64,000 nt of DNA, taken from positions 1-64,000 of IMG/VR virus record IMGVR_UViG_3300032770_000003. One strand, written 5' to 3'. Source of the DNA: a virus. Within the stretch, counting starts at the first letter, position 1. The number at the start of each line of letters is the position of its first letter. Positions 14,450 through 50,822 of the stretch are shown here, piece by piece. Made by a program: the position numbers and the translations under genes. A model generated the notes under the pieces. It was given only the letters and a program-made list of their open reading frames with translations. It was not told the origin of the DNA and searched no databases.

Positions 14450-16075
14450 TCATATTCTACCGCCGACGAAATCAGCGATGACCTGTGGCATGGATGTATC
14501 CAGACCACAGAAGTCCATCATTCCTCCGTCAGCCGGATCGGCGATGCTGACGTTGTTTGCCGTGAAGGCGATGACCGCCAACTTCGCGCCGTCCACCCGC
14601 TCCCTGCGATACTGCTTGATGGCCTGCGCGGGATGGATGTTGCCGTGGTTGGTCTCCGAGTCGGTGTAGACCAGGAAGGCGTCGACCTCCAGGTTGTTTT
14701 TGTAGGCGTGGGCCATCGGCAGTGAGCAGTCAGTCGAACCGAAGTCCGACCGCTGCACGATGTGCTCGACCTCATCGAGCCGCATGCGCGGGCTGATCTT
14801 CAGATCGACGAACTTGTGACAGAACCCGAAGAAGTAGTGCTGCTTCTCCACCCGGGCTGTCACCATCGCCATGACCGCCGCCCCCACAGTGGGCGTGATC
14901 CCTGTCATCCCAGCCAGCTCAGGCGAGCGCATCGACGCAGAGCAATCGATGCCCAGCAGAGTCCTCTTTCCGGTGGGCTCGATCGTGGCGAACGTCGCGT
15001 AGAACGCTTCGTCGAGGGCATCCACGATCCGCTGAGAGACGTCCCACTTCAATGAGCCCTTCACCCCATGCCCCCGGCGGTAGGTGTTGAGCGCCACCAG
15101 CACCTGCATGGGATGCAGACGTGCCCGACGAAGCCGCTCACCGTCGCCCAAGATCTCCATGGCTCTCTTCTCGCCCGCGGACAGCGGAGCGATAAGACCA
15201 ACCTCGGACATCTTGCCCAGGTTGCGGACCAGGGCATGCACGGGCATGTCCTGGAGCAACACCTCCCACACCTCCGCCTTGTTGAGCGCCTCAGTCGGCA
15301 GAGCCTCACGAGGCAGCCGATAGGCTGAGATCATCTGGGTCAGACGGTCCAGGTCCGCCTTCTTCTCGACGTCCAGACTCTTGACCGTGTCCGATGCCCA
15401 CAGCTGTGACAGCGGATCCTCCGGAGCGAGGACAGTGTCACCCCACGCCGGCTTCTTCTTCTCGGTCACCCAGCCGAACATGGAACGGTAGATGTCATCC
15501 GCGGGCTTCGCATGAGCCTTCCGAAGGACGTCCCGGTGAGACCAGCTGTCGCGCGACGGGTACTTGATCAGCTGGTAGGCGAGGTCATCGTAGTCCTGGC
15601 TGAGATACCAGTTTGCGATGGCATGCCGGATTCCGCGTCCCCAACCACCGAGTGTCTGGAGAGCCTCCACCAGGTGGAAGAGATGCGTCCCAATCCGGCA
15701 GACCTTCGGAATCGCACCACGAGCGTGGTTCGCGACTTCGGGATCCTTCGAACGGCACGCGAGCGCCAGGGCGAAGATCGCCGGATCGTTCTTCGGCGCC
15801 CGTCCTTCCTGCGAGATCTTGACGATCTCATCGACGGTCCGCTTGCCGTCAGCCGCAAGACAACGCTGCACACACTGCGCGTTTTGCAGCGTCAGCTTGC
15901 GTTCGGTGGCGTAGTACGAACCACCTTCACTGCCGAGAATCAGGAAGCGACGGAGTCGCGTCCAGTCGTCGACTTGGAAGGAGTAGCCACCACCCGAGTT
16001 CGGAATCTGCTTGCTGCCCGGGATTGGTGCTGTCTGGGGAGTCTGCTTCGGGTTCAGATGCTGTGCGTACTTCAA
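14450..16075 (-). CDS. rsr: Ro60/Rsr TROVE-vWA RNA-binding protein
   Basis: NSGGGYSF.VDDW.RL.RFLILGSEGGSYY, GWGRG, KYPSRDSWSHRD.LR..H, ALVRNLGKM, DCSASM, TDCSLP, VYTDSET, DPAD.GMMD..G.D. Confidence 0.95.
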   Translation of the reverse strand: MKYAQHLNPKQTPQTAPIPGSKQIPNSGGGYSFQVDDWTRLRRFLILGSEGGSYYATERKLTLQNAQCVQRCLAADGKRTVDEIVKISQEGRAPKNDPAIFALALACRSKDPEVANHARGAIPKVCRIGTHLFHLVEALQTLGGWGRGIRHAIANWYLSQDYDDLAYQLIKYPSRDSWSHRDVLRKAHAKPADDIYRSMFGWVTEKKKPAWGDTVLAPEDPLSQLWASDTVKSLDVEKKADLDRLTQMISAYRLPREALPTEALNKAEVWEVLLQDMPVHALVRNLGKMSEVGLIAPLSAGEKRAMEILGDGERLRRARLHPMQVLVALNTYRRGHGVKGSLKWDVSQRIVDALDEAFYATFATIEPTGKRTLLGIDCSASMRSPELAGMTGITPTVGAAVMAMVTARVEKQHYFFGFCHKFVDLKISPRMRLDEVEHIVQRSDFGSTDCSLPMAHAYKNNLEVDAFLVYTDSETNHGNIHPAQAIKQYRRERVDGAKLAVIAFTANNVSIADPADGGMMDFCGLDTSMPQVIADFVGGRI

Positions 16076-32550: not shown

Positions 32551-32555
32551 ATCGG

Positions 32556-32642
32556 TCGGCGGGGTGGGAATCGAACCCACCGGCGACCCGAAGGTCAACG
32601 CGTTTACGGCGCGCCCGGACTCCATTGTCCTGTTTCCCGCCG
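32556..32642 (-). tRNA. tRNA-Tyr(GTA) with C1:G72
   Basis: loop CCGUAAA (C33); long variable arm. Confidence 0.8.
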
Positions 32643-32678
32643 AAAAGGTCAGCGGGCGTTTATACGCAGGATCGGCCA

Positions 32679-32846
32679 TCAGTTCTCCCCTCCTCTCCGG
32701 ATGCGAGTCTTGCGCACCAGATCTTGCCAGCGATGCAAGCCGGGCTTCAGCTTGCCGTTTTTGTCACGAAGTTCCAATTCACCTTTTTCGTTGATGTACC
32801 GAGCTATGACTTGCTCGGCAGCTCGAACCAGCTTGGGCTTCCTCAA
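32679..32846 (-). CDS. small basic protein, first gene after the attenuator
   Basis: GGAGG RBS then TTG; MRKPKLVRAAEQVIARY... Confidence 0.5.
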   Translation of the reverse strand: MRKPKLVRAAEQVIARYINEKGELELRDKNGKLKPGLHRWQDLVRKTRIRRGGEN

Positions 32847-32862
32847 GGCTGCCTCCAAAACG

Positions 32863-32897
32863 AAAAAAGCCGCCTCGAAGAAGTTCTCCGGGCGGCT
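32863..32897 (-). terminator. intrinsic terminator of the array attenuator
   Basis: AGCCGCC-CGGAGAACUUCUUCGA-GGCGGCU followed by UUUUUCGUUUU. Confidence 0.85.
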
Positions 32898-32923
32898 GAT
32901 GCAGGGGTCAATGACTTGACTCG

Positions 32924-33076
32924 TTACATCAGCCACCCTTTATCTTCGGTCGTCCCAAACTCCGGATGGCAGACTGTTGAGCTTGGGACACTCGGATTCG
33001 CGGCAGCGTACACCCAACCGCGTCGGGGCTTGAGGCCCTCGCGGAGAATCTGGGTGGACAGCTGCTGCGACAACAT
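32924..33076 (-). CDS. putative attenuator leader peptide (50 aa, all 20 amino acids)
   Basis: MLSQQLSTQILREGLKPRRGWVYAAANPSVPSSTVCHPEFGTTEDKGWLM*; its 3' end pairs with the terminator 5' arm. Confidence 0.7.
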   Translation of the reverse strand: MLSQQLSTQILREGLKPRRGWVYAAANPSVPSSTVCHPEFGTTEDKGWLM

Positions 33077-33088
33077 GATGACCAATTC

Positions 33089-33117
33089 ACGGTAGGCACA
33101 GGGCGATCGAGATGCAA
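33089..33117 (-). promoter_or_regulatory. sigma70-type promoter of the tRNA/Y RNA array
   Basis: TTGCAT-17-TACCGT with an upstream A6 tract. Confidence 0.65.
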
Positions 33118-33174
33118 GGACTTTTTTCTGGGTTCCTCCTTGACTCGCGATTTCCCTACGCTTTACCTGTCTAG

Positions 33175-33930
33175 TCAGACACTGATCGGGCCGCCGTAGT
33201 CAATGAATCCTACGTTGATCTCGCTGATCAAGCGGACACGCTCGTAGACCCCGTCTCCGTCACGGGAGCCCGCCACGTTGGTATTCCCCTCCACGGTCAG
33301 GATCTCGCCCGCGCGGACTCCGGTCACGAGACCGGTATGACCGTGGTCGTTCCCGTGATCGATGATGAAAACCGACCCCACCGCGATCTTGGTCGGATCG
33401 TCGAACGCCATCCCGGCCAGGAGCTTCGTCGCCGGAGGCGACGCCGCCCACAGCTCAGCCACTGAGCCCGTCTTCACGCAAGGATTGGGAACGTTCAATT
33501 TAAGCGCCGCGTTATCGAAGCACCAGTAGACAAAACACGCACACCAGGCGTAGCCCTTGGTCGGATCGAGCCCGACTGACTGGACGTAGAGATCAACCAT
33601 GGGGCCCCGGTTCGGAACCCCCTTGGTCTCGCGCACCCCGACCTGGGATGTGGCCTGTTCGAGCAACGCCCGCAGCAGCTTCGACTTGGGCGTGATCTGG
33701 ATCGGATTCGGTTGATAGAAGAGCGCTGTCCACGTGCGCGGACCGACGACTCCATCAGCCGGCAGACCACGCCGAGTCTGGAAGAGCTTGACGGCACTCT
33801 CCGTCGCGGGACCATAGTAGCCATCGATCGCGGAAGGATCGCAGCCCACCAGCGCCAGCTGGCGCTGAACCTCCAGCACAGACGACGCCGGGCCACTGTT
33901 GAGGCGAAGGGCTCGACCAGGATAAGTCAT
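33175..33930 (-). CDS. endolysin: peptidoglycan-binding domain plus CHAP amidase
   Basis: DGYYGPAT..AVK.FQ...GL..DGVVGP.TW; AWCACFV, GHTGLV, TVEGNT. Confidence 0.92.
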   Translation of the reverse strand: MTYPGRALRLNSGPASSVLEVQRQLALVGCDPSAIDGYYGPATESAVKLFQTRRGLPADGVVGPRTWTALFYQPNPIQITPKSKLLRALLEQATSQVGVRETKGVPNRGPMVDLYVQSVGLDPTKGYAWCACFVYWCFDNAALKLNVPNPCVKTGSVAELWAASPPATKLLAGMAFDDPTKIAVGSVFIIDHGNDHGHTGLVTGVRAGEILTVEGNTNVAGSRDGDGVYERVRLISEINVGFIDYGGPISV

Positions 33931-34084
33931 CGTCGCAATCCTCAGAAGCAAAGCAGGCAGAGATACTTCGAACCTGGTGGGCGAGGATCGAGCTGGACAA
34001 CGAAGGCGCGATGACCACAGCTCAGATGAATCACAGTGACGCCGTTAGGATTCCTGTGCTGACCGATGATCGTTCGCGTGACGC

Positions 34085-47696: not shown

Positions 47697-50600
47697 TCAA
47701 AGTTTCAGTTCCTGTTTGGCAGCCCAGTCACGTCGTGAGAAACCGAAATCCACAACGATGGGCACCCGGAATTGGAAATCCTCCATAGCCTTCTTCACCT
47801 CACCGAGCAACGGCAATTCCTTCTTGTGCCAATAGAACTGGATCTCGTCGTGAACGAAGTTGACGATTCGGGTGCGGGCGTTGTGCGCCTTCAGGATTCG
47901 GTTGACACGTACGATGGCCGTCTTGAAGGTGTCAGCAGCGTCACCCTGAATCAGGAAGTTCCCGCCCTGGCGAGCCGCACGAGCGCGCTCCCACTTCTTG
48001 TTGGAGTGGATGTTGGGCAGTCGGCGAAACCGCCCAAAGCTGTTCTGAATGTAGCCCTGCCGACGAAGCATCAACTCGGTGTGATCAACCCAAGCCTTCA
48101 CGCCGCGGTAGCGCTGGAAGTACCCCTTGATGTACTCGGCGCACGCCTCACGGCTCACGCGACGCTTGGGCGTGGACACCTGACGCTGGATAGCTCCCGG
48201 TCCCGCTCCGTAGATGATGCCGAAGTTGACCCGCTTGGCGATGTTCCTGAACCACTTGATGTCATGGTTCTCGGGGTGGTTCTTGTCCTTCAGGATGGCC
48301 AAGACCTCAGGCAACGGTCGCTGCAACACCACGTCCGCACAAGTGAGGCTGTGGATGTCCAGCTCATGCCCAGCCCACCCGGGTGCTGTCGGTGAATAGG
48401 CAGCTAGCAGTGTGGGGTCTTGAGACCAATGCGCTGTCAGGCGCAACTCAACTTGACTATAATCAGCAAAGACGAAGACGTAATCGTCGTCAGGAACAAT
48501 AAATGACCGTCGAATTTCGAGGTTTTTACCAGGAATGTTTTGACACTGACCAGTGACACAGACACGACCATTGTGTCTGGTCAGAATAACTTTTGACGGG
48601 ACACTGAGACAATAAACGAATCCATCATGAGCTATCCGTGTAATGACAGCATTGTCTGTGTAACTGTAGTTCCGTGCAGTTGAATCAACAACGTAGCAAA
48701 CAGTGTCTCGCGGTGTTTTGTATTCACGGATCTTGGCGCGATAACCAGACAAACAAAGCACGATCTGCGCCCAATCCACGTTTCGACGATGCATAGACGC
48801 GTACTGTGATCTCGTCCGCCAACAACCATCCCAGAAAAACAGCTCTTGACACCACAAGTCTAACGTCGGTCTATCACAACTCAGAAGCCACGATCCAAGC
48901 TGTTTAGCGTCCCCCAAGTACGAACGAACCCACTCCACACACTCACCTGCAGGGACCCTAATCCGAACGCGGCCAGAGAGGGATATGCGCTTGCTGTATG
49001 AGAAACCTAAGCCCTGTAAAGCCCACTCCAACCGATCAATCTTACGATGCTTTTTGAAACTAAAATCAAGAGTTCGATCGGCATAAGAACCGTCCGCCTG
49101 TGTCGCTGCCAATAGAACAACTTCTTGCTCTGACATTCGCAGCGAACCACCTGCGTATATGCCAGCATGCAGTTGCTTATGGTGTGTCCCATTAGATGGG
49201 TATTCACTAGCAGAACAAAAACCACCAAGTCCATCACGGTTTACCAAGAAGCAACGATGATCTGGTGTCATAAGCAAATCTATTTGCTGATTCTGTACGT
49301 GTACCAGCTCCTCCTTGCGGTAATGCTTGATGTATTCAGTAGGCATGACGAACTCGACAGCGTTGTCACGCCACTGAGCCACAGGTACTCCTCTAGGCAA
49401 ATCATCGAGTCGTCGCCAACCATCTGGTGTAAGCACCTCAGTGTCCCCTGTGAAGCAGTTGGGGTCCCTCGAACTCATGCGGCCGGTGTCGACGTTGGCG
49501 TTGAACGTACTGTGGAGGTAGTGGTGCTCATCGACCAACAAGCGGATCTTGCGTACGTAGGTGTTGAGGAGTTTCTGCTTCTCACGGAAGCTCAAAACCT
49601 TGTTGGCGAACTCGTAGGTCGCGGCCAGCTCCTCCAAGACCTCCTTGTCAACCGAGAACTGAGCCGCCGTCGGCTCACCCCCCTCGCGTGCCACCTCTTG
49701 ACCCTTCTTGGTCAGCTTGTTCAGGGGGCAGCCAGCCTTGCGCAAGGCTGCTAGCAACTCCTCATTCGACTCGATATTGAACCTGTAGCCAATGTCTCGA
49801 TAGACGTCAGCCTCAGCCTCCTCCATCGCCTTGATGAACTCGGGCTCGATCCTGTCGAGGTGAGCAATGTCGATCTTGACTCCGTGCTGCTCGACCTCAT
49901 ACAGCACCTGTGACAGGTGCATCTCGTTGATGTACAGAGACCGGAGCGCGTCGTGTTTCGCTACGTCAGGGAAGAGTTGCTTCCAGATCATCCAGGTGTA
50001 GTGCACGTCCGCGCACGCGTAGGGAGCGAGGATCGACAGCGGCACCTTGTCGTAGGTGATGTCCCCTTTTTTCGCGTTGGCGTAAGGGTGGGTTTCGAGC
50101 CCCGCCTTGACCCTCTTCTTCAGGAAGTTGGTGACCTGCGCCTTGGTCATCCCTGAGTAGCGCCATAGCGGATTCTGCGCGGTGACCTCGTTCTCCAGAT
50201 CCACACGTCGCGCAGTCAAAGTGTCAGTGATCAGTTTCGAGAACTCACGCCGTCGCCGCTTGGACTCGTCCACACGCCAGCTATCGACGCTCTTTTCCCA
50301 CACATCAGCAGTCTTCCCAATCAGGAGACGTGCAACCTCCTTGAGCCCCTTGTCCGAATTCTCATCCAGGAGGTGAACAAGAATGACCCCGTCGTGGCTG
50401 GGTCCCTTCAGGGTCATCCCGCAGCGATCGAGAAAGTGCTGATCGAAGACCTTGTTCCAGAAGAGCTTGGTGACGTCTGGATTCTCGATCACCTTCCGCA
50501 GCGGTTCGCGGATGTCATCCAGATTCAACTGCGGGTCAGTTGTCTCATGACCGATCGGCAAGTAGTAGTTGTTCTCAAGCCCCCAACCAAAAACGAGCCC

Positions 50601-50822
50601 ACACGCACGGTCCCTAACCCAATCGAGACCACTGGTCTCGGTATCGACCGCGATCATCCTCTGCCGAGTCAGTCGCGTGTAGAAGGACCAGAATTGGTCC
50701 ATCGTCTGAACCAACCGGTACTGTGCTCCTTGCAAACCCGTCCACTGCGCCATCGCTGGCGCCGCGACCGGTATGTGTACCGGTGGTGGGGCTGGTAGAA
50801 GGGTGCTGAGTACCTGATCCAC
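47697..50822 (-). CDS. polA: family A DNA polymerase with 3'-5' exonuclease and intein
   Basis: DTETSG, YAC.D, TGRMSS..PN/QNIP, ADYSQVELR, AKRVNFGIIYG, VHDE. Confidence 0.95.
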   Translation of the reverse strand: MDQVLSTLLPAPPPVHIPVAAPAMAQWTGLQGAQYRLVQTMDQFWSFYTRLTRQRMIAVDTETSGLDWVRDRACGLVFGWGLENNYYLPIGHETTDPQLNLDDIREPLRKVIENPDVTKLFWNKVFDQHFLDRCGMTLKGPSHDGVILVHLLDENSDKGLKEVARLLIGKTADVWEKSVDSWRVDESKRRRREFSKLITDTLTARRVDLENEVTAQNPLWRYSGMTKAQVTNFLKKRVKAGLETHPYANAKKGDITYDKVPLSILAPYACADVHYTWMIWKQLFPDVAKHDALRSLYINEMHLSQVLYEVEQHGVKIDIAHLDRIEPEFIKAMEEAEADVYRDIGYRFNIESNEELLAALRKAGCPLNKLTKKGQEVAREGGEPTAAQFSVDKEVLEELAATYEFANKVLSFREKQKLLNTYVRKIRLLVDEHHYLHSTFNANVDTGRMSSRDPNCFTGDTEVLTPDGWRRLDDLPRGVPVAQWRDNAVEFVMPTEYIKHYRKEELVHVQNQQIDLLMTPDHRCFLVNRDGLGGFCSASEYPSNGTHHKQLHAGIYAGGSLRMSEQEVVLLAATQADGSYADRTLDFSFKKHRKIDRLEWALQGLGFSYSKRISLSGRVRIRVPAGECVEWVRSYLGDAKQLGSWLLSCDRPTLDLWCQELFFWDGCWRTRSQYASMHRRNVDWAQIVLCLSGYRAKIREYKTPRDTVCYVVDSTARNYSYTDNAVITRIAHDGFVYCLSVPSKVILTRHNGRVCVTGQCQNIPGKNLEIRRSFIVPDDDYVFVFADYSQVELRLTAHWSQDPTLLAAYSPTAPGWAGHELDIHSLTCADVVLQRPLPEVLAILKDKNHPENHDIKWFRNIAKRVNFGIIYGAGPGAIQRQVSTPKRRVSREACAEYIKGYFQRYRGVKAWVDHTELMLRRQGYIQNSFGRFRRLPNIHSNKKWERARAARQGGNFLIQGDAADTFKTAIVRVNRILKAHNARTRIVNFVHDEIQFYWHKKELPLLGEVKKAMEDFQFRVPIVVDFGFSRRDWAAKQELKL
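48546..49457 (-). mobile_element. intein in polA (304 aa; Cys...Gly-Gln; degenerate LAGLIDADG)
   Basis: CFTGDTEVLT...TPDHR...VYCLSVP...VTGQ|C; lower GC than flanks. Confidence 0.9.

Follow-up and report, generated by a model that had tools for sequence, protein, structure and literature searches.

A conserved, putative ribosome-mediated attenuator at the entrance of a phage tRNA array

On comparative evidence, the sequence between the endolysin gene and the tRNA array of an uncultured phage contains a real, conserved regulatory element. We consider it probable that this element is a ribosome-mediated transcription attenuator, placed at the entrance of the array and reading general decoding capacity; no expression data are available, and use of the promoter, translation of the leader and termination are inferred. 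Directly observed are the sequence elements, the competing helices with their conservation and covariation, a conserved reading frame, and the conserved amino-acid completeness of the encoded peptides. An attenuator had been proposed from a reading of the sequence alone. The proposal was supported here by codon diversity above that of the null models and by orthologues that retain the frame, the competing helices and peptides with all 20 amino acids.

The window analysed comprises the first 64,000 nt of an uncultured virus record of 171,494 bp, estimated by CheckV to be 96% complete, with ~59% G+C. In this part of the genome nearly all genes are carried on the minus (-) strand. Along that strand, the order is large terminase (TerL, 37437-35584), a sigma/HTH-like protein and two small proteins, a CHAP/PG-binding (PG_binding_1) endolysin (33951-33175), the leader element, and a tRNA array (32642-23170) of at least 35 tRNA genes with small ORFs interspersed. 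The array opens with tRNA-Tyr (32554-32642, -), which is likewise the first tRNA past the terminator in the three orthologous loci described below. The sequence-only reading had placed 40 tRNAs and a set of Y RNAs downstream of the element. Neither figure was reproduced: the tools detected 35 tRNA genes on the - strand, and no Y RNA was found in the window at the Rfam gathering threshold.

Promoter-like element, leader ORF and competing helices

All features of the element lie on the - strand. A promoter had been read as TTGCAT (33117-33112) and TACCGT (33094-33089) separated by 17 nt. Both hexamers are present at this spacing, but they match only 6/12 sigma-70 consensus positions, which is chance level when taken alone, and a simple consensus scan did not flag them. 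Support for a promoter comes instead from conservation in the orthologues. An A-tract (33127-33122) and a -35-like CTTGCAT (33118-33112), together spanning 33112-33127, form the pattern AAAAAAG-NN-CTTGCA, which is invariant in all four loci. The -10-like TACCGT (33089-33094) follows 17 nt past the -35, and this spacing is kept, although the consensus match of the hexamer alone is weak. Across the orthologues the -10-like boxes read TACCGT, TACGGT and CATTGT, with A at position 2 and T at position 6 retained. The genome of 171 kb contains a single copy of the promoter motif, and thus no promoter family backs it.

The ATG of the window (33076) lies 12 nt past the -10-like box, and the AUG is invariant in all four loci, 9-14 nt past the -10. 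This implies a near-leaderless mRNA; a transcription start ~7 nt past the -10 would, by inference, leave a 5′ UTR of 2-7 nt. Such an mRNA would account both for the invariant AUG and for the absence of a Shine-Dalgarno sequence, none being found upstream of the leader AUG. Translation of the leader therefore rests on an assumed near-leaderless start, behind a promoter with no more than 6/12 consensus positions. A longer frame of 62 aa from TTG 33117 was considered and rejected, having a codon score of -0.43 and no conservation of frame.

The leader ORF (32924-33076, -) was found as claimed, with 50 codons from ATG 33076 to a TAA at 32926-32924, and with all 20 amino acids encoded by 38 distinct codons. 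The sequence-only reading would have been refuted by a codon diversity no higher than that of random ORFs; the leader ORF lies far above every null. Of the 50-codon windows within the genome's long ORFs, 0.06% combine 20 amino acids with at least 38 codons; the proportion is 0.07% when codons are drawn at random from the genome's usage, and among 310 small ORFs the combination is reached by one, taken to be the leader ORF itself. The leader contains no tandem runs of one codon; it specifies all 20 amino acids, in keeping with an array whose tRNAs cover many or all of them. Its codon score of 0.01 is intermediate between those of real genes (0.27) and off-frame sequence (-0.56). No second genomic copy of the leader region was detected by self-BLAST.

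The 3′ end of the ORF takes part in an extended helix. Region 2, the 5′ arm of the antiterminator (32925-32938, -), is made up of the final four codons plus two stop-codon bases, and region 3, the 3′ arm, lies at 32890-32903 (-). The 14-pair helix proposed earlier could be confirmed: GGGUGGCUGAUGUA (32938-32925) and UGCAUCAGCCGCCC (32903-32890) form 14 consecutive pairs, 12 Watson-Crick and 2 G-U. The helix is part of the minimum-free-energy fold, and the hairpin alone has a predicted energy of -31.1 kcal/mol.

Downstream is an intrinsic terminator (32863-32897, -; -21.3 kcal/mol), made up of an interrupted 13-bp G+C-rich stem with a 3-nt loop (32897-32869) and a U6 tract (32868-32863). Its 5′ arm overlaps region 3, also as claimed, and the 8 nt at 32897-32890 are common to the terminator and the 14-bp helix; the two helices are therefore mutually exclusive. 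A genome-wide scan for hairpins of -12 kcal/mol or better followed by a run of at least 5 T returned 18 sites in 171 kb. The leader terminator ranked third among these 18 and is the cleanest canonical one, though a simple consensus scan did not list it. The top hairpin with a T-run (-25.3 kcal/mol, U5) falls beyond the window, at genome position 144988 (-). With 18 candidates per 171 kb, the phage has few canonical intrinsic terminators.

A further hairpin, B (32952-32990, -; RNAalifold), lies inside the ORF, and its 16-nt loop holds region 1 (GCCAUCC, 32970-32964). The sequence-only reading had considered a helix between regions 1 and 2 possible. In agreement with this, the duplex of GCCAUCC with region 2 has a predicted energy of -16.7 kcal/mol (P = 0.008 relative to shuffled loops). 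Over the four loci the energies of the duplex between loop B and region 2 range from -10.7 to -16.7 kcal/mol, and the pairing beats that of shuffled loops in the window and in L017. The loop of L020 pairs better with its own region 2 than with that of L017 or L019. Support for the 1:2 helix is thus moderate.

Conservation and composition in orthologous loci

Relatives of the locus were not found by direct similarity. A DNA search of the region against cultured phages gave no match, and the TerL proteins of cultured phages are only ~30% identical to that of the window. Searches of viral contigs for the locus with the endolysin, an 85-aa ORF spanning the terminator, the Ro60-like protein and the tRNA-Tyr/tRNA-Lys junction pattern returned nothing. 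TerL relatives on viral and metagenome contigs of IMG/VR and JGI (L002-L013) either had no tRNAs or were on contigs that end before the region, and most endolysin homologues were found in bacterial contexts without a leader. A pattern scan combining promoter and terminator gave 4 viral-contig and 58 prokaryote-genome matches, which were rejected as chance, having no nhmmer similarity to the leader and no tRNA array. Three orthologous loci, L017, L019 and L020, were traced via three contigs that carry homologues of both the sigma-like protein and the endolysin.

These loci belong to related uncultured phages with TerL 74-80% identical to that of the window (78% for L019 and 74% for L020; L017 comes from the same metagenome as the 80% relative). 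They carry tRNA arrays of 19 to at least 31 genes, each starting with tRNA-Tyr, and in all three the element lies between the endolysin stop codon and tRNA-Tyr. As the loci were found by gene order and not by properties of the leader, they constitute an independent test. The statistics derived from them are nevertheless not fully independent, since there are only four sequences from one clade.

Among the loci searched, the promoter-to-AUG motif was confined to the four with tRNA arrays. It was missing from the searched relatives without tRNAs, including a 94%-complete genome of 162 kb. A relative of this size (record G003, 162,637 bp; L004/L011), with 64% TerL identity and the same terminase-to-lysin order, has neither tRNA genes nor the promoter-to-AUG motif; array and leader may therefore be gained or lost together in this lineage.

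It had been suggested that leader ORFs with conserved pairing and divergent peptides be sought upstream of other phage tRNA arrays, and the three orthologues are of this kind: they share a conserved frame and conserved pairing, have the stop codon in the antiterminator arm, and encode divergent peptides. In the alignment of the four loci (A1: window, L017, L019 and L020), the open frame comprises 50, 48, 53 and 51 codons, respectively, and both other frames are interrupted in the relatives. Between the AUG and hairpin B, the relatives deviate from the window by -3, +12 and 0 nt, all of them multiples of 3. The stop codons (UAA, UAG, UAG and UAA) are always at the 3′ edge of the antiterminator 5′ arm.

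Both competing helices were conserved. For the antiterminator, 87% of the cells of the alignment were paired, and 6/14 pairs had changed on both sides. Only 2/500 column shuffles were equally good, and sliding of the partner strand reduced pairing to 30-41%. The consensus structure of the four loci predicted by RNAalifold was the antiterminator. The terminator, with its 5′ arm in the same eight columns, had 94% of cells paired and compensatory changes in 2/8 pairs, and hairpin B formed a 12-bp RNAalifold consensus helix, again with compensatory changes. The unconstrained fold was the antiterminator in 4/4 loci. When the RNA was masked through 12 nt past the stop codon, the terminator folded in 4/4, at -18 to -24 kcal/mol. 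The first ~28 codons were poorly conserved in both sequence and structure.

The comparative data bear directly on the possibility that an open frame and hairpins co-occur by chance in G+C-rich intergenic DNA. At 59% G+C, long ORFs often arise spuriously; in the window, each of the three frames is open over most of the ORF, with its first stop within or just before region 2, and the diversity statistic was chosen after the ORF had been seen. Chance would nonetheless have to account for compensatory changes and complete peptides in three orthologues that were found independently, as well as for a terminator among the three strongest in the genome. We regard this explanation as very improbable, and it is already contradicted by the comparative sequence data.

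Alternatively, the conserved frame could belong to a small protein gene of the ordinary kind, and the late operon (terminase to endolysin) could end at a plain terminator behind it. The hairpin would then be an RNA-stability element, or an RNase III-type processing element between mRNA and tRNA precursor. A codon score of 0.01, lying between coding and non-coding values, is compatible with this, as is the ~20-bp two-part hairpin, which we take to resemble phage processing sites. The peptides, however, are only 29-50% identical, and their best-conserved stretches coincide with the RNA helices. Moreover, the hairpin overlaps the terminator arm by 8 nt in 4/4 loci, so that by default the terminator would be off, and a conserved promoter-like element stands between the endolysin gene and the ORF. 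A small protein gene thus seems quite unlikely.

Each of the four leader peptides contains all 20 amino acids in spite of their divergence. Dinucleotide shuffles of each ORF gave probabilities of an open frame of 0.22, 0.29, 0.11 and 0.14, and probabilities that all 20 amino acids are present, given an open frame, of 0.013, 0.018, 0.072 and 0.020. As the sequences are related, a conservative, phylogeny-aware simulation was also run, in which the ancestor contained all 20 amino acids, positions identical to the nearest relative were fixed, and the rest were redrawn from the leaders' own flat composition. The probability that all three relatives remain complete was ~7 × 10−4 in this simulation. 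The rare residues (C, H, F and I) had been relocated. Cys occupies column 42 in the window and L020, and column 20 in L017 and L019; His has moved to column 16 in L020, Phe to column 17 in L019, and Ile has moved in L020. This is the pattern that would be expected if completeness itself were under selection. The number of distinct codons (38, 38, 42 and 41) was above that expected from the peptide and local codon usage (P = 0.095, 0.049, 0.001 and 0.006, respectively), and the four leaders combined use 55/61 sense codons.

These features also weigh on the reading of the element as an RNA switch that works independently of translation, in which a structured 5′ domain (hairpins A and B, with loop B paired to region 2) would choose between antiterminator and terminator on binding a small ligand, a tRNA or a protein, and the frame would be incidental. 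The 241-nt fold of the region is strong (z = -5.85), the ORF region is strongly structured with hairpin B conserved and covarying, loop-to-region-2 pairing exceeds that of shuffled loops in the window and L017, and the leader AUG has no Shine-Dalgarno sequence. Such a switch would leave unexplained an invariant AUG with a single frame open in 4/4 loci (P(open) 0.11-0.29 each), a stop codon held at the edge of the antiterminator arm, and an all-20 composition conserved through relocation of rare residues. The poor conservation of the first ~28 codons also speaks against it, and no Rfam family was matched in the leader region, either at the gathering threshold or at E up to 10; this includes the T-box, for which there was no match in 32600-33250 (Rfam, E up to 10). 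An RNA switch of this type remains possible, if rather unlikely.

Proposed mechanism and relation to known attenuators

Under the preferred reading of ribosome-mediated attenuation, transcription would begin at the conserved promoter a few bases before the AUG to give a near-leaderless mRNA, and a ribosome would trail RNA polymerase across the 50 codons. Instead of a run of one amino acid, it would sample all 20 amino acids and ~40 codons. With fast decoding, the ribosome would reach the stop codon and cover region 2, allowing regions 3 and 4 to pair, and transcription would stop at 32863. A delay at nearly any earlier codon, or a failure of ribosomes to load, would let the stable 2:3 helix form first; the terminator could then not form, and the polymerase would proceed into the tRNA genes. 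The outcome would be a feedback loop in which the supply of tRNA follows the capacity for decoding. It is inferred that the promoter is used, that the ORF is translated and that transcription ends at the U-tract; the kinetics of coupling and the physiological trigger are likewise inferences. That the element gates the whole array and the Y-RNA-like elements is unproven, and internal promoters are not excluded.

Stalling was examined with a purely thermodynamic footprint model, in which each ribosome masks from 15 nt before to 14 nt after the A-site codon. In L017, L019 and L020, a stall anywhere ahead of the last 8-10 codons favours the antiterminator in this model, except at two codons of L017, which are borderline, and at five of L020, which go the other way. 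The stall-sensitive window so defined covers 19/20 amino acids in each of these three. The Asp codon always falls within the last 8-10 codons, where the model predicts termination, not read-through. The window's own stall map was noisier than those of its relatives. The antiterminator is predicted to be ~10 kcal/mol more stable than the terminator, and termination would therefore need tight coupling of ribosome and polymerase. Since the antiterminator wins thermodynamically in the absence of a ribosome, the default is probably read-through.

In its architecture, the element satisfies what is required structurally of a leader-peptide attenuator. Like the trpL, hisL, leuL, thrL, pheL and ilv leaders, it has a promoter-proximal mini-ORF and alternative 1:2, 2:3 and 3:4 helices, and, as in the enterobacterial leaders, the position of the stop codon lets a terminating ribosome mask region 2. 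The intrinsic terminator lies ~55-60 nt past the stop codon, again as in enterobacterial leader attenuators, and the spacing is similar to that of trp. The differences are nonetheless considerable. In place of a run of regulatory codons, the phage leader offers every one of the 20 amino acids within 48-53 codons, which accords with the logic of leader attenuation but departs from its classical form; it is three to four times as long as trpL, and its cargo consists of tRNAs and not biosynthetic enzymes. Unlike the enterobacterial leaders, it has no Shine-Dalgarno sequence, its mRNA being probably near-leaderless. Further, the 1:2 helix of the phage is far weaker than its antiterminator; without translation the default would therefore probably be read-through, whereas the default of trp is termination.

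By function, the nearest described system is bmrB-bmrCD, one of the attenuators that sense general slowing of ribosomes. In this locus of Bacillus subtilis, a long leader ORF is combined with alternative stem-loops and an intrinsic terminator (Reilman et al. 2014, PMC4191407), and read-through needs translation of the leader and rises with general ribosome slowing (PMC4191407). It is a host system and not a phage one, however, and it senses antibiotics and controls an efflux pump; no amino-acid completeness is reported for it, and it has no sequence similarity to the phage element. T-box riboswitches also report the state of tRNA through a terminator/antiterminator switch, but they do so without translation, through direct binding of one uncharged tRNA. 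In addition, the UGG-containing arm of the phage element is fully paired, not bulged as in the T-box, and is unconserved in L020.

No description of a leader-peptide attenuator for tRNA genes was found in the literature, and to our knowledge the control of phage tRNA arrays is largely unknown. An all-20 leader would supply a first regulatory logic for these arrays, namely that tRNAs are made when decoding is slow, and it would widen attenuation from the sensing of one amino acid to that of overall translation capacity. Why phages carry tRNA arrays is debated, with codon compensation and the replacement of tRNAs destroyed by host defences among the proposals (e.g. PMC10264068). With a meter of general decoding capacity, a phage would not have to sense individual tRNAs in order to respond when host tRNAs are depleted or cleaved, or when it has itself shut off their synthesis. 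Anticodon nucleases as the biological trigger are unproven. The element is only 270 nt long and, if it works, may offer a compact and portable translation-speed sensor for synthetic biology. A broader possibility is that the ORF has been selected to contain every amino acid and ~40 codons, acting as a general 'decoding-capacity meter' whose transit time sets transcription of the phage's complete tRNA set, and that large phages widely carry attenuators of tRNA supply, a class so far unpublished of which the leader would be one family. We hold this to be evenly balanced.

Start of the tRNA array and other genes of the window

The gene caller had placed an 85-aa ORF (P0001, GTG 32936) across the terminator. 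An exhaustive HMMER search with this ORF found one clear homologue, P0122 (48 aa, 62% identical), whose residue 1 aligns to residue 31 of the 85-aa ORF, which corresponds to TTG 32846. This TTG lies directly past the terminator, with a perfect GGAGG (32856-32852) 5 nt upstream. The 85-aa ORF was therefore rejected in favour of a start at TTG 32846, and it follows from the match to the start of P0122 that the terminator is intergenic. The first gene past the terminator is then a 55-codon ORF (32679-32856, -, including its GGAGG). It is a phage-specific insertion, absent from L017, L019 and L020. P0122 (L018, 393-539) lies directly past a tRNA-Arg(cct) in an unrelated 1-kb contig, and a second protein, P0124 (83 aa), has a P0122-type C-terminal motif behind a Cys-rich N-terminus. 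Together, the 55-codon ORF, P0122 and P0124 look like a family of small ORFs living within tRNA arrays.

Directly before tRNA-Tyr, a shared arrangement of GGAGG-like ... ATGG ... CC(T)GCGTATAAACGC was observed in the window (32643-32700, -), L017 (4283-4336) and L020 (11245-11298). It is thus present in 3/4 phages; L019 is without it, its tRNA-Tyr lying 5 nt past the terminator. The conserved CGTATAAACGC motif, which contains TATAAA (at about 32664-32659 in the window), could be a second promoter that bypasses the switch. Alternatively, it could be a processing signal or the start of a tiny ORF. Genes for HNH endonucleases occur between the tRNAs of L017 (4432-4850) and L019 (11009-11620), at sites that differ from those in the window.

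The host of the phage is unknown. The closest homologues of the endolysin (33175-33951, -) are 50-61% identical and are mostly on bacterial contigs with cellular neighbours, some of them labelled Polyangia or Acidobacteriaceae, which is a possible hint at the host lineage. A 541-aa protein encoded at 14450-16075 (-) matched phrog_850, 'RNA-binding protein' (E = 3 × 10−70), consistent with the Ro60-like protein that the earlier reading had paired with Y-RNA-like elements. In the 1041-aa DNA polymerase (47697-50822, -), residues ~455-760 matched PHROG families of PhoH, ribonucleotide reductase and thymidylate synthase, which suggests a shared inserted element, such as an intein.
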